From positions 18,805 through 82,804 of the forward strand of contig JAPLZK010000004.1 in NCBI GenBank assembly GCA_026395055.1: 64,000 bases of DNA, read 5' to 3'. The notes under the pieces were generated by a model. It saw only the letters and a program-made list of their open reading frames with translations. It searched no databases and was not told the origin of the DNA. Source of the DNA: Candidatus Uhrbacteria bacterium (lineage in GTDB: Bacteria > Patescibacteriota > Patescibacteriia > UBA9934 > GWF2-40-263). Positions within the stretch are counted from its first letter, which is position 1. Each line of letters begins with the position of its first letter. Both the position numbers and the translations under genes were made by a program. Shown piece by piece: positions 10,394 to 50,726 of this stretch.

Positions 10394-10413
10394 CCTGCCT
10401 GCCGGCAGGCAGG
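10394..10413. repeat. Palindromic element A, copy 1 (CCTGCCTGCCGGCAGGCAGG)
   Basis: Perfect palindrome centred on CCGG, immediately after the rsr stop; other copies at 19501, 42004, 48493 and 50704. Confidence 0.85.
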
Positions 10414-10448
10414 TCTCGGGGAACATTGTCGCAAGATGATGTTCCTCC

Positions 10449-10488
10449 TATTTCTTCGACACACAACTCTTTGATGAACTCAGAGTTG
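10449..10488 (+). repeat. Intergenic element TATTTCTTCGACACA + hairpin (copy 1)
   Basis: TATTTCTTCGACACAcAACTCTTTGatgaaCTCAGAGTTG; second copy at 11142-11183. Confidence 0.6.
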
Positions 10489-10618
10489 CGTCTCGAATCG
10501 AATAGAAATTTTATATCGACACATCGACGAAAGGGTTTACGAACGCTCACAAGTCACTTCACAAAAAACCAATGCCACACAGGGTGGCACGCAAGCAAGT
10601 TTTTTGGAGGAGGTGTCT

Positions 10619-11092
10619 ATGGGCGGTCCGACGTGTTTTCGTAAGGTGGAGATTCAGAAGTTTTCGGTACGGATGACGCGCAAAGGGTATGAGCGGTTCA
10701 TTTTGGAACAGTTTGTTCCAGAGTACGGCTTAGACGTTTTGCAACTCGGGTTTCTGTTCAATGGATTGTGTCAGGAAGAATTGGACGACGATCACGCTGC
10801 GTATGCTCGTATCTTTCCAGAGACTCTGCGTCTTTTGGCAAGGTGTGGCGCTGTGGGCTCCTTCGAGTATCACGAGCGTTCGAGCAACGAAGCGGATCAC
10901 GGAATGGAAACGCGTCGCAGGGATGAATCCCGGAAGCGCTACACGTTCTGTGCAGATGGAACCGTGCTTGAGACGTTGTTGTATGAGAGGAGTTTTTTCG
11001 AAACGATTTCGGTTGATCTTGAAGAGATCCCGATCATCGTAAACGGAAAGATTCTTTCTCCGTCACAGAGCGTCGCGGTCCTTCGTCGTTAG
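10619..11092 (+). CDS. Hypothetical protein (157 aa)
   Basis: GGAGGAGG SD 7 nt upstream of the ATG; no known motifs. Confidence 0.5.
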   Translation: MGGPTCFRKVEIQKFSVRMTRKGYERFILEQFVPEYGLDVLQLGFLFNGLCQEELDDDHAAYARIFPETLRLLARCGAVGSFEYHERSSNEADHGMETRRRDESRKRYTFCADGTVLETLLYERSFFETISVDLEEIPIIVNGKILSPSQSVAVLRR

Positions 11093-11141
11093 TGTGTGTG
11101 ATCTTTCCGGTTTCTTTCAGGAGCAAGCTTCTCTTGCTCCT

Positions 11142-11183
11142 GATATTTCTTCGACACATAACCCTTCAACAGGTTCAGGGTTG
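11142..11183 (+). repeat. Intergenic element TATTTCTTCGACACA + hairpin (copy 2)
   Basis: GATATTTCTTCGACACAtAACCCTTCAACaggttcAGGGTTG, preceded by the terminator-like hairpin GGAGCAAGCttctCTTGCTCC. Confidence 0.6.
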
Positions 11184-11224
11184 TGCTGCGAACGAATATG
11201 CCGCGTGCGGCTTCGGAGGTTCTC

Positions 11225-11383
11225 ATGAGTCCTTACATGGTGAAGCGGTGCGGTGTCATTCGTCATCTTCCGGTCGAGCGATCGACGGAAGTGCGAGCGG
11301 TACTGCCACCCACGCAGGCTCACCACCTGCAGGTTGTCATTCGAAGGAATGGCGAGATCATCAAACGGGTTTACGCCCATTGA
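11225..11383 (+). CDS. Hypothetical small protein (52 aa)
   Basis: GGAGG SD upstream of ATG 11225. Confidence 0.35.
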   Translation: MSPYMVKRCGVIRHLPVERSTEVRAVLPPTQAHHLQVVIRRNGEIIKRVYAH

Positions 11384-11449
11384 TGAGGTTCTTAACCAAG
11401 CGGGCATCTATGCCATGGACCTCATTGCCAAAAAATAGACGGGAGATCG

Positions 11450-48038: not shown

Positions 48039-48386
48039 AATATTCTGTGATTAGAAGTTGCTGAGTCGTTAAGTTTTTGAGTCGAGGTATATATTTTCCT
48101 AAATAGAAGACAGTGATTCCTTGACTAAATGACTTATCGACTCAACAACGCTTGTTTTTTCTAGTTAAGCGATCAAAAAAATACAAAAACAAAAACAAGG
48201 TTTTTTGATCGAATATCTTCAATTGTAAAAGAACAGTCTCTCTCCAGAAAAATCACGACGAACACGCGAACTTTTTAAGATGGTCTCGTGAACGGAGAGC
48301 ATCCAGAAAATGTCACGTGTTGTCTATGAACTTATTGTAGCGTGTTTCAAGAAGATCGGCTATCGGGCCGTTGCAACGCATTTCGA

Positions 48387-48472
48387 TGGTGCGGATGAGA
48401 GGACTTGAACCTCCAAGGGCTTGCGCCCACAGGCTTCTGAGACCTGCGCGTATACCATTCCGCCACATCCGC
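48387..48472 (-). tRNA. tRNA-Leu (anticodon CAG), type II with long variable arm, CCA encoded
   Basis: Manual fold: acceptor GCGGATG/CATCCGC, anticodon stem CAGGT/GCCTG with loop CTCAGAA, a 14-nt variable arm, and a TTCAAGT T-loop. Confidence 0.75.
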
Positions 48473-48546
48473 ATAGTGCTTCTGAGACCTACGCGCCTGC
48501 CTGCCGGCAGGCAGGTATACCAATTCCGCCATTCGTCCATGAGCGA
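48473..48546 (-). pseudogene. Degenerate duplicate of the tRNA-Leu 5' half, interrupted in the D-arm by palindromic element A
   Basis: GGCGGAATTGGTATAC[CTGCCTGCCGGCAGGCAGG]CGCGTAGGTCTCAGAAGCAC aligns with GGCGGAATGGTATACGCGCAGGTCTCAGAAGCC of the intact tRNA directly downstream. Confidence 0.6.
48493..48515. repeat. Palindromic element A, copy 4 (inside the tRNA-Leu fragment)
   Basis: GCGCCTGCCTGCCGGCAGGCAGG. Confidence 0.85.
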
Positions 48547-48560
48547 AATGCGTTGAGTGC

Positions 48561-50252
48561 TTACTTCAGGGTTTGTTTTGTCTTGATGTACCAATCTTCC
48601 ACATTCGCAAAGCGATCTGATGGAACGCGCAGGGAAGGAGGAAGATTTAAGTGAATCTTTTTTGGTTCCGCAAACGCATAGGTAGATTGATAAAGAAAAA
48701 CTGCTGGGACTTCTTTTACCAGAAGAGACTGGAATTGTCGAGAGAGTATGTCTTCATCTGCCTGGGTTTTTGCAGAACGGGCCTTTTCTAGGAGTTTGTC
48801 TGCATCTGCGTTTTGATAGTGAGAAATATTGAACCCACCTTTTCCAATTTGAGAAGAATGCCAGAAGAAATAGGGGTCCGGGTTTGTTGCTCCGTAATTG
48901 GCCGTTAGAAGGAGTTCGTAGTCTTGTGTAGCGACAACATCGGTCATTAAGTTGTCTGCGTCAACGGTTTTAATAGTGATGCCGATTCCAAGAAGGCTCA
49001 ATTCGTCTTTTATTTCTTGTGCAACATGAACAAATTCGTCGCTTGAGATGGTTGTGAGGGTAAAGGAAACATCTACTCCTGGCTGTGCCGGCGTATCTGT
49101 TCCTTTTTTCTTTGCAACAGGTTTGTTAGAGATCTGACGCAATGTTGCGCCAACAGGTTTTTGAAAACCCGCTGTGTCTAACCCGGAAGCTGCTGCAGAA
49201 GGATCAAAAGCGATTCCAGCGAATGTGGGATCAAAGGCAGATGTCCCATTGAAAATTGGACCATTCATGACGCTAGCGTGGGAAGAAAGAACTTGTGAAA
49301 CAAGTTTATTCTTATCAATGGCCTGTGCGATAGCAAGACGGACAGCTGTATTCTTTAATAGAGCGTTTTGCGTATTGAAATAAAGAGCGGTTCCACGGGG
49401 AATAGAGGAATACAGAAGATTAACCCCGTGATTATTTTCAATGGTGGCACGATGTTCAAATGCAACGTATCCAACAGCCTCTACGTTTTTGTTGGTGAGA
49501 GCTTGGGTGGCAGATTGTTCGTCTGGATAAAATTTAAAAATGAACTTTTCAATTTTTGGTTCAGTGCCGTAGTAATGGGTATTACGTTTGAGTGTGTATG
49601 TTCTAATGGAGCCTTTTTTGTCTTTGGTAAATTCTTGAAACGCATAAGGTCCGCTTCCGATTGGTTGGAGGTTTAAAGAGGCAAGCGGAACATTTTGTGC
49701 CAAAATATCCGACCACAAGTTGTTTGGGAGAATTCCAATGGTTAATTTGTGTGAAAAAGAAGGATCTGGGTTTTTGAGTGTGAACAAAACGGTCTGGTCG
49801 TCGGCTTGTTCAATTTTTATGTCGCGAAAATCCGCAGAAAGGGGGCTGCGGTAGTCTGAATCTTGGAGGGCAGAGTAGGTAAAGACCACATCACGTGCTT
49901 GAACAGGTTCGCCATCTGAAAATTTGGCGTTTGGATTGATGCGGAGGGTATAGCTTAATTGATCATTGCTTACGGTCATGGAATCTGCGAGATCATTTAT
50001 GTATCCTTGTGTTGGATCCCATTTGAGGAGACCTGAATAGATAAGGGATGCTAAATCCTCGTCCGCGTCGTTTGTGGACGCATAAAGTGGATTGATAAGT
50101 CTTGGGGTTCCAATAAGAGCTTCTGTGTCGTCTCCGCCAACAGCCGGGAGCTCTACGCGGTGTGCGAAAACATAAACACCCGCAAGAAAGAGGAGTGAGA
50201 CGAAGATAAGAGACAAAGATCCAAGAAACATCTTTTTTTCTTGGAGACTCAT
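48561..50252 (-). CDS. ABC transporter substrate-binding protein, family 5 (Opp/Dpp-like), membrane anchored
   Basis: N-terminal TM anchor; length and composition typical of SBP_bac_5. Confidence 0.5.
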   Translation of the reverse strand: MSLQEKKMFLGSLSLIFVSLLFLAGVYVFAHRVELPAVGGDDTEALIGTPRLINPLYASTNDADEDLASLIYSGLLKWDPTQGYINDLADSMTVSNDQLSYTLRINPNAKFSDGEPVQARDVVFTYSALQDSDYRSPLSADFRDIKIEQADDQTVLFTLKNPDPSFSHKLTIGILPNNLWSDILAQNVPLASLNLQPIGSGPYAFQEFTKDKKGSIRTYTLKRNTHYYGTEPKIEKFIFKFYPDEQSATQALTNKNVEAVGYVAFEHRATIENNHGVNLLYSSIPRGTALYFNTQNALLKNTAVRLAIAQAIDKNKLVSQVLSSHASVMNGPIFNGTSAFDPTFAGIAFDPSAAASGLDTAGFQKPVGATLRQISNKPVAKKKGTDTPAQPGVDVSFTLTTISSDEFVHVAQEIKDELSLLGIGITIKTVDADNLMTDVVATQDYELLLTANYGATNPDPYFFWHSSQIGKGGFNISHYQNADADKLLEKARSAKTQADEDILSRQFQSLLVKEVPAVFLYQSTYAFAEPKKIHLNLPPSLRVPSDRFANVEDWYIKTKQTLK

Positions 50253-50417
50253 GACACTTGGAAGTTGTTCCCATTGTTTCCATGTTGGAAAGGAGCGGGG
50301 TTTTGTAACAGAAAGAACCTGGCGAAGGGCCAGGTTTTTTGTTTGATGAGCTTCCGGATTCTTTGAGGATTTAAAAAAACGCGTAAAGATATTGCGGAAT
50401 TAAGAATGAATCCGCCT

Positions 50418-50639
50418 TTACAAAAGGATACCAGCAAGAGATACACCGAAAAAAAGAATGGCGATCAAGATGGTTGCTTGGAACAGTTTTTTTTCTGCTC
50501 CACGTTTTGTGCGGTAGACGTTTCCACCTCCACCAAACGCTGCTCCGATTCCTGTTCCGCGTGATTGCAATAAAATGGAGGCAATAAGCAATACGGCAAG
50601 AACGACTTCTGCGATTTTGAGAATGAGATCAATCTTCAT
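50418..50639 (-). CDS. secG: Preprotein translocase subunit SecG
   Basis: IASILLQSRGTGIGAAFGGGGNVYRTKRGAEKKL matches the SecG core; 73 aa. Confidence 0.65.
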   Translation of the reverse strand: MKIDLILKIAEVVLAVLLIASILLQSRGTGIGAAFGGGGNVYRTKRGAEKKLFQATILIAILFFGVSLAGILL

Positions 50640-50703
50640 AGTGAAATAATGGTACCAAAAACAGCCCGAATCGTCAACCGTTTGTGGATGGTTTTTTGGG
50701 ATT

Positions 50704-50726
50704 CGCCTGCCTGCCGGCAGGCACGG
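50704..50726. repeat. Palindromic element A, copy 5 (one mismatch)
   Basis: CGCCTGCCTGCCGGCAGGCACGG. Confidence 0.8.

Follow-up and report, generated by a model that had tools for sequence, protein, structure and literature searches.

What is the short palindrome that recurs at five places within a 64,000-nucleotide stretch of DNA from a Candidatus Uhrbacteria bacterium (contig JAPLZK010000004.1, positions 18,805 to 82,804; hereafter ‘the window’), and how did it come to lie in contexts as different as a protein-coding gene and a tRNA? [quoted passage not shown] Here, we define the repeated unit as a 20-bp perfect palindrome, CCTGCCTGCCGGCAGGCAGG, which we name P, and consider that the five sites are probably copies of one ultra-small, non-coding mobile insertion element, closest in kind to the small dispersed repeats (SDRs) of the Nostocaceae. 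Comparison with other genomes establishes both the mobility of P and the size of its unit; its mechanism of movement we infer only tentatively.

The repeated unit and its five sites

The copies of P (listed without strand) and the RNA gene adjoining the third of them are as follows:

10394–10413: exact copy, 9 nt past the stop codon of the Ro60/TROVE (rsr) gene at 8688–10385
19503–19522: copy with one mismatch (CTTGCC...), CTTGCCTGCCGGCAGGCAGG, within the coding sequence (CDS) of a FemAB-family gene
42006–42025: exact copy, intergenic, in a terminator hairpin 22 nt 3′ of the RNase P RNA
48496–48515: exact copy, in the D-loop of a truncated tRNA-Leu
50706–50725: copy with one mismatch (...GCACG), CCTGCCTGCCGGCAGGCACG, in the intergenic region between the divergent secG and DsbA-like genes
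42048–42602, minus strand: RNase P RNA, bacterial class A (Rfam RF00010, 142.8 bits), the terminator of which carries the third copy of P

The insertion places thus comprise a 3′ spacer, a protein loop (entered in frame), a terminator hairpin, a tRNA D-loop and a promoter spacer. All five copies are where the sequence-only reading had put them, and the contexts it named agree in each case with our annotation of open reading frames (ORFs), tRNAs and Rfam families; its view that the number of copies is far above chance is likewise borne out, the expectation from dinucleotide-preserving shuffles being 0.00 matches. The unit, however, is the 20-bp core and not 24 bp: a 24-bp perfect palindrome is found only at the copy at 42004–42027, and the string given in that reading (26 nt in length, though called 24-bp) has no exact occurrence, its best matches being at 42003 (one mismatch) and 48493 (three mismatches).

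As single-stranded DNA, P is predicted to fold into an 8-bp GC-rich stem closed by a 4-nt CCGG loop (−8 kcal/mol). It consists of two abutting 10-bp inverted arms, and so possesses terminal inverted repeats (TIRs); it contains no stop codons, a property that is statistically unremarkable in a GC-rich 20-mer and carries no weight here. No Rfam family matched at the P sites. An independent assembly, Logan contig L001 (SRR20698644), is 100% identical to the window over positions 40858–50744. Homologues of FemAB, RNase J and Rsr assign the window to Candidatus Uhrbacteria, within the Patescibacteria.

Orthologous sites in related genomes

Syntenic contigs of relatives were retrieved via homologues of RNase J and Rsr: L272 (RNase J 96% identical at the amino acid level), L275 (93%), L273 and L274 (87%) and L276 (Rsr 91%). 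At the DNA level these are 75–83% identical to the window, and therefore represent other species of the same clade. Sequences resembling P, allowing up to three mismatches, are absent from all five contigs, and P is missing at the orthologous position for four of the five window sites; three of these differ from the window by about 20 nt and the fourth, at 50706, by 22 nt.

The terminator at 42006 gives the clearest picture, with the empty form in L275 reading GAATCTCGCCTCGCG/CGAGATTTTTTGA and the window having exactly 20 bp added at the position of the stroke, nothing being duplicated. At 10394, L276 reads GCGTAATCAAGTCTCTCTTGGGGAAG where the window has GCGTAATCCAAATC-P-TCTCGGGGAAC; again an insertion of around 20 nt with no duplication. 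At 50706, where L272 reads AACGCTTTGC/AAACCC, the window has gained 22 nt, which can be seen either as CG plus the one-mismatch copy of P or as a 24-mer accompanied by a 2-nt loss. Together with the tRNA-Leu site described below, this makes four orthologous empty-site comparisons, and a target-site duplication is evident in none of them. By parsimony over the empty relatives, these copies are therefore recent insertions that arose in the lineage of the window, without target duplication; in the alignments, every copy in the Uhrbacteria genome that could be tested has gone in cleanly, adding about 20 bp (22 bp at one site). The earlier proposal of a mobile element is accordingly upheld: orthologous sites are empty at four of five positions, the nearest FemAB homologue is empty also, and mutated variants of P have been copied elsewhere (see below).

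The relatives carry a different dispersed perfect palindrome, P4, of the form (G)TTCGTAGGGGAGGG(G/T)CATG(C/A)CCCTCCCCTACGAA(C) and 34–36 nt long in L273 and L274 (L273:532–567 and 9513–9546; L274:555–590 and 9350–9383; L275:3937–3956). P4 contains a GTAG motif, in the manner of REPs, and one copy lies just upstream of the tRNA-Leu of these relatives; the window carries P but no P4.

Insertions within protein-coding genes

The second copy of P is translated in frame within FemAB, as ..KPCLPAGRE.., and a protein alignment places it in a hypervariable loop. The segment that distinguishes this gene from its closest homologue is composite:

19497–19568, plus strand: extra FemAB segment of about 66 nt, comprising the second copy of P and an unrelated hairpin, TTCGAGGCTCTGAGGAGCCCTCAGGCTCTCGAA (19536–19568)

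The homologue in question (P0002, on L122; 81% identical in the alignment, 76% by BLASTP) has neither P nor the second hairpin, the window having both; hence the difference of about 66 nt. A more distant homologue (P0005, on L123) carries a degenerate copy of P at the same loop, and most homologues have no insert there. FemAB homologues also contain other short, GC-rich, low-complexity inserts in surface loops, for example GEGQAPP, GGRGGKERN and PPCQGGMKGG.

FemAB is not the only protein affected. Ribosomal protein S6 of a Daviesbacterium contains P in frame, with a gain of around 6–7 residues, and P is also read through in frame in several long ORFs; the peptides that it inserts include LPAGRQ, CLPAGR and PACRQAG.

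The tRNA-Leu site and a wider association with tRNA genes

Two tRNA-Leu features lie side by side at the fourth copy of P:

48476–48540, minus strand: relic 5′ half (about positions 1–40) of a ‘type A’ tRNA-Leu(CAG), acceptor GGACGAA, split by P and with its 3′ half missing
48387–48472, minus strand: intact ‘type B’ tRNA-Leu(CAG), acceptor GCGGATG, directly downstream of the relic (ARAGORN, Rfam)

The D-loop of the relic reads GGTATA-P-CGCG, as against GGTATACGCG in intact genes. L272 has a single tRNA-Leu(CAG), with the acceptor stem GGACGAA/TTCGTCC, and the window fragment, ATGGACGAATGGCGGAATTGGTATA-P-CGCGTAGGTCTCAGAAGC, equals the 5′ half of that gene bar the 20-bp D-loop insert and one base (CGCGTAGG in the relic, CGCGCAGG in L272). 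The intact gene in the window is of another type, with acceptor stem, variable arm and T arm unlike those of the relic, and is nearly identical to the tRNA-Leu of L273. Given its match to the 5′ half of the single gene in L272, the fragment is therefore the relic of the resident tRNA-Leu(CAG), which was hit by P and truncated. The sequence-only reading was right to see a 5′ half split by the palindrome, but the alignment to L272 makes this what remains of the resident gene and not a stray duplicate; P has indeed inserted in both a tRNA D-arm and a CDS, as it had described. The insertion disabled the resident tRNA-Leu(CAG), whose function falls to a second allele directly downstream.

Unrelated taxa repeat this arrangement, in which an intact tRNA directly follows a 5′ relic that contains P:

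L005, Omnitrophota: Leu-CAG
L002, Parcubacteria: Leu-CAA, with a different acceptor allele
L031, Patescibacteria: Val
L085, Saccharibacteria: Ser
L016, Patescibacteria: intact tRNA-Met, with the P-bearing 5′ relic of another tRNA upstream of it

Other parts of the tRNA can be entered as well: in the relic on L168, P is present in the anticodon loop and near the D arm, on L189 it occupies the T loop, and in a complete viral tRNA-Met (L149) it serves as a tolerated long variable arm. Counted over unique P sites, 10 of 283 lie within a tRNA or no more than 60 nt from one; a share several-fold above the fraction of the genome that tRNAs occupy.

Distribution across bacteria and viruses

An 18-mer of P was sought in one genome per species across 185,579 species and found at a minimum of 120 loci, in about 120 species, against an estimated chance expectation of about 9. 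Among the 120 matches listed, 117 extend to the identical 20-mer, in flanks that are unrelated. More than 100 species, from about eleven phyla, thus carry an identical 20-mer at dispersed loci, as do uncultivated viruses. By record label, the 120 matches listed are distributed as follows:

Bacteroidota: 39 loci
Patescibacteria (about 15 candidate phyla names): 37 loci
Labelled Gammaproteobacteria: 11 loci
Omnitrophota: 9 loci
Planctomycetota: 6 loci
Unclassified ‘bacterium’: 4 loci
Thermodesulfovibrionales: 3 loci
‘Delta proteobacterium’ metagenome-assembled genomes (MAGs): 3 loci
Bdellovibrionales: 2 loci
Verrucomicrobia, Planctomycetes–Verrucomicrobia–Chlamydiae (PVC) group, Elusimicrobia, Chloroflexi, Thermodesulfobacteriota and Pseudomonadota: 1 locus each (6 in all)

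Seven cultured Bacteroidota are included among them: Winogradskyella echinorum KCTC 22026, Flagellimonas yonaguniensis, Longitalea luteola, Flavivirga sp., Aquiflexum lacus, Agriterribacter humi and Aestuariivivens sediminis. Firmicutes, Actinobacteria, enterobacteria and cyanobacteria do not appear among the 120 matches listed. IMG/VR contributes 35 viral stretches with P, one of them a 29.5-kb contig with at least six copies; exact P is absent from the 50,697 phage records of INPHARED and the 72,556 plasmid records of PLSDB, which gave weak, GC-rich partial matches only. Setting the index copy aside, P occurs about once per 50 kb in P-bearing loci and not at all in control loci; in the window its density is one per 13 kb. 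MITE families are reported to be 98.2% genus-restricted (PMC11602168), and the spread of P is therefore far outside the norm. A search of 8 million papers for the sequence of P, whole or in part and as DNA or RNA, found no relevant paper, and searches by description led only to general work on MITEs and REPs.

Two further palindromes came to light in these loci. One, TCCGCCAGCTGGCGGA, is also perfect and crosses taxa, with eight occurrences in P-selected loci (L012, L016, L017, L033, L042, L112 and L114); it is sometimes at the tip of longer hairpins, and in one case nested in a degenerate copy. It is at most a doubtful candidate for a sister family of P: its 55 viral hits (L217–L271) lie for the most part in coding sequence rich in GC, and show neither a heptamer nor a duplication signal. 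The other, CCCGATAGCTATCGGG, is present at three Bacteroidota loci.

Copies of copies, nesting and heptamers

The viral contig L158 contains a two-substitution variant of P, CATGCCTACCGGCAGGCAGG, at three dispersed places and additionally in a tandem array with a period of 21 nt:

L158:3916–4142 (IMGVR_UViG_3300025106_000007): tandem array of at least 10 units of CATGCCTACCGGCAGGCAGG plus C, 21-nt period, reaching the contig end

Mutated versions of P are therefore spread within a single contig, from which it follows that copies are made from copies. P is also found nested within P, at or beside the CCGG centre (L019, L044 and L022).

Outside the window, P is associated with heptamers. Direct repeats of 7 bp abut P at 13 of 159 sites (17 when repeats of 7–14 bp are counted), compared to 0.65 expected for 7 bp, and within 45 nt of P tandem arrays are enriched 9–12-fold when their period is 7 or 8 (9-fold for period 7), though not when it is 5 or 6. 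A metagenome scan for two copies of P separated by 1–30 nt returned 57 loci, in which the spacings peak at 7, 14, 21 and 28 (26 of 60); the spacers consist of tandem copies of the flanking heptamer, as in ttgcgga-P-ttgcgga-ttgcgga-ttgcgga-P. L125 contains both a 27-nt (7+20) tandem unit and, at 11677–11736, a heptamer array without P. P is followed by T at 41% of sites and by A at only 8%, with a mild A(−1)/T(+1) bias overall. This embedding in heptamers is a feature of other genomes and is not seen in the window.

One heptamer, TTGCGGA (complement TCCGCAA), flanks P in eight contigs (L143, L166, L185, L190, L193, L194, L198 and L207), often together with TTACGAA arrays; its recurrence would fit a target for which P has a strong preference, or else a family of composite repeats in one lineage. 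On L105, the TTGCGGA beside P is the 3′ end of a tRNA-Ser gene, which we take to be coincidence.

The heptamers could be either 7-bp target duplications that accumulate over repeated visits or pre-existing arrays entered at a preferred phase. Since no duplication accompanies P in the four empty-site comparisons, the latter, or the existence of two insertion modes, is favoured; the same comparisons contradict a 7-bp target duplication as a universal signature. A general targeting of hairpin loops, an idea prompted by the tRNA loops, the terminator and the extended palindromes, was also considered and rejected: when each site was folded after deletion of P, the junction fell in a predicted loop at 18.5% of 157 sites, as against 18.7% of 782 random controls.

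A possible route of movement, and what weighs against it

P encodes nothing, and would therefore have to be moved in trans by a protein that is not encoded nearby. As a low-confidence guess, the hairpin form of a single strand (of DNA, or perhaps of RNA) would insert at a nick or gap, after which replication would fix the inserted hairpin strand and so give rise to insertions free of duplication; the heptamer arrays might then be preferred targets or by-products. A fuller version of this idea, to which we would give rather less than even weight, is that P is a transposable element of pan-bacterial host range, and the smallest so far known. New 20-nt hairpins would be copied from existing ones, and their insertion, free of target duplication, would be the work of an activity common to the Candidate Phyla Radiation (CPR), Bacteroidota, PVC bacteria and their phages: either a conserved enzyme or host replication or repair functions that have been hijacked. 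The machinery itself would ‘freeze’ the sequence; tRNA genes would be knocked out and then replaced by second alleles, proteins would acquire 7–9 residues, and the tandem heptamers, of the short tandemly repeated repetitive (STRR) type known from cyanobacteria, would be preferred targets or footprints.

Saying this, a number of observations weigh against a mobile P. A Pfam scan of the roughly 60 ORFs of the window found no transposase, integrase or REP-associated tyrosine transposase (RAYT); these are ordinary CPR housekeeping and cell-envelope genes. An all-against-all BLASTP over 120+92 loci (the genome loci first, then the viral, metagenome and window sequences) found no recurrent P-linked gene family, only housekeeping or phage structural families, and a search of 1.24 Mb of loci for a parent insertion sequence (IS) bounded by P half-sites (60–6000 bp apart, with matching flanks) returned only pairs of P. 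The insertion signatures conflict with each other, there being no duplication at four window sites as opposed to 7-bp repeats and heptamer phase elsewhere; and, given the null result of the loop test, a structure-directed model has as its basis a subset of sites, namely tRNA loops, one terminator and the nested copies. The polarity, insertion as opposed to loss, is drawn by parsimony from two to four relatives at only 75–83% DNA identity. Finally, known transposition systems give no account of the exact identity of P across phyla.

Alternative explanations

Several properties of P would suit a REP-type hairpin, or the doublet form known as a REPIN, that a RAYT (a HUH tyrosine transposase like those of IS200/IS605) would move as a single strand at the replication fork and without target duplication: the insertions at four sites are duplication-free, P is a short GC-rich hairpin, it occurs in places prone to single-strandedness (tRNA loops, the terminator loop), and palindrome P4 of the window's relatives begins with GTAG, as REPs do. 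We nevertheless regard this as unlikely. The unpaired GTAG/CGTC tag and conserved flanks are absent in 117–159 copies; P is found inside coding genes (FemAB, ribosomal protein S6, long ORFs); close pairs are spaced at multiples of 7 and form no fixed-distance inverted doublet; and P is one and the same across phyla, whereas REPs belong to particular lineages and evolve together with the RAYT that serves them. The window has neither a RAYT nor any Y1_Tnp gene in its 64 kb, and the cognate transposase of IS200/IS605 TnpA type that the sequence-only reading had suggested looking for appears neither among the window ORFs nor as a recurrent neighbour; its label of ‘REP’ is not one that we retain. 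Its other label fares no better, at 20 bp, with no parent IS found and no target duplication in four orthologous comparisons. A minimal MITE, in which two abutting 10-bp TIRs are cut and pasted by a DDE transposase encoded elsewhere, with 7-bp staggered cuts and with heptamer arrays as the accumulated duplications, would nonetheless explain why exact or near-exact 7-bp repeats abut around 10% of sites compared to 0.4% of controls, why enrichment near P is confined to periods 7 and 8, why P–P spacers are multiples of 7 made up of the flanking heptamer, and why a 27-nt (20+7) tandem unit exists. Yet the 7-bp duplication is present in none of the four empty-site comparisons, no repeat flanks P in about 90% of its exact copies, and no parent IS with P ends was found in the 1.24 Mb of loci. 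Moreover, P-free heptamer arrays exist, and in-phase insertion with an A/T site preference would give the same pattern; 20 bp is also too short to accommodate two transposase-bound ends. This reading, too, seems to us improbable, and to a similar degree.

Explanations in which P does not move at all fare considerably worse. The extreme conservation of the sequence, the terminator-like character of the third copy (a hairpin and T6 run after the RNase P RNA) and the position of the first and fourth copies just 3′ of genes might suggest a functional cis-element (a terminator, RNA-stabilising hairpin or protein-binding site) held identical by selection. P is, however, missing at orthologous sites, with the L275 terminator (hairpin and T-run) complete without it; a T-run accompanies just one of the five copies, the third; P occurs within CDSs, tRNA relics and P itself; and flanks and neighbouring genes are unrelated. 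A role of this kind is therefore highly unlikely, and nothing points to the CCGG restriction-modification system or site-specific recombinase target that had been raised earlier. An artefact of sequencing or assembly, for instance a palindromic linker or adapter, is the least credible of all. It is true that a constant perfect palindrome in many unrelated assemblies resembles untrimmed linker, and that some contigs end at or near P (L001, 19 nt after the fifth copy, at 50744; L087; L158). Against this, removal of P restores the tRNA and the terminator exactly, with flanks that are contiguous genome; separate samples have degenerate in-frame copies within one protein loop; assemblies from many studies and platforms contain P, among them isolates, MAGs and a single amplified genome (SAG); the 50,697 phage records and 72,556 plasmid records from cultured organisms contain none; P is almost confined to certain phyla; and the search of 8 million papers found no adapter with its sequence.

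More generally, short-read contigs tend to stop at or close to P or its arrays, the cases noted being position 50744 of the window, L087 (the final 137 nt of a scaffold of 240 kb) and the end of L276; P may be a common breakpoint of short-read assemblies.

Other features of the window

The match to RNase P RNA at 42048–42602 (minus strand) spans 555 nt against a model of 367 positions, from which it follows that this RNA carries large insertions. A 12-mer, TCTTTGGGTTCC, is found at 42039–42050, where it overlaps the 3′ end of RNase P RNA, and at 50760–50771; that is, 14 and 35 nt to the right of two copies of P. It has three matches in the window at up to one mismatch, compared to 0.35 expected.

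A tRNA-Ile(TAT), with an anticodon that is uncommon among bacteria, is located at 60104–60180 (minus strand), adjoining a tRNA-Val(GAC). Bacterial rsr genes usually have a Y RNA nearby; none was detected beside rsr in 10414–10620, a permissive Rfam search included. Between its RNase J and tRNA synthetase genes, L272, the closest relative, has a small HicA-toxin pair (L272:11892–12327) that the window does not.

Significance, and comparison with known small repeats

Mobile DNA is thought to be lineage-bound, a pattern broken by 20 bp of identity extending from Patescibacteria to Flavobacteria, Planctomycetes and viruses. If our interpretation of P as a mobile element is correct, then there would be either a very widely shared mobilising activity not yet linked to a substrate or a frequent transfer across phyla of a sequence that has no cargo, and the SDR phenomenon, known only from the Nostocaceae since 2008, would extend over much of the bacterial tree. 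P is also a lead on the origin of tandem heptamer repeats and, since it is present in cultured Bacteroidota, its mechanism is open to experiment. In practical terms, P breaks short-read contigs, makes spurious ORFs, splits tRNA genes and inserts peptides, all of which matters for annotation pipelines.

Among known repeats, REPs lie outside genes, often as inverted doublets, and are marked by an unpaired GTAG or CGTC tag that is conserved; they are specific to a lineage, each with a cognate RAYT (PMC3733652, PMC3116915). P shares with REPs and REPINs the form of a short (20–40 bp) GC-rich palindrome in many copies, and for REPs movement as a hairpin of single-stranded DNA, leaving the target unduplicated, has been proposed; P differs in having neither the tag, the extragenic restriction nor the REPIN doublets, and in the RAYT not being seen in the window. 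MITEs are 50–500 bp in length and derive from an identifiable IS (PMC11602168). The likeness here lies in being non-autonomous with inverted-repeat ends, in the 7-bp repeat that flanks a subset of P copies, and in sharing between host and virus; the differences are that P is 20 bp, with no parent IS found, that it shows no duplication at four comparisons and that it crosses phyla. Rickettsia palindromic elements, at 100–150 bp, are confined to Rickettsia, and mitochondrial GC clusters are organellar. Both are palindromic selfish elements found, as P is, in frame in protein genes and also in RNA genes, and tolerated in surface loops; unlike P, neither is conserved base-for-base across phyla.

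The closest resemblance is to the SDRs, which Elhai et al. reportedly described in 2008 as eight families (SDR1–8) of Nostoc punctiforme and other Nostocaceae, 21–27 nt in length, non-coding and hairpin-forming. They are also said to lie often within tandem heptamers and to be nested in themselves, to have been judged mobile by comparison and to have had an RNA route proposed for them; we know of no enzyme for them. The study is cited by later papers (PMC3116915, PMC5861425), one of which, where it touches on SDRs, has none found outside the Nostocaceae (PMC5861425). By description, then, P and the SDRs are alike in being small (20 nt and 21–27 nt, respectively), non-coding, hairpin-forming and dispersed, in their embedding in heptamers and nesting within themselves, in a mobility that is read from comparative evidence, and in having no known enzyme. 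They differ in that SDRs are reported to be confined to one cyanobacterial subgroup, whilst the same P is shared by viruses and about eleven phyla other than cyanobacteria; in that P is a perfect palindrome; and in that P is seen inside CDSs and tRNA genes, with orthologous sites that are empty.

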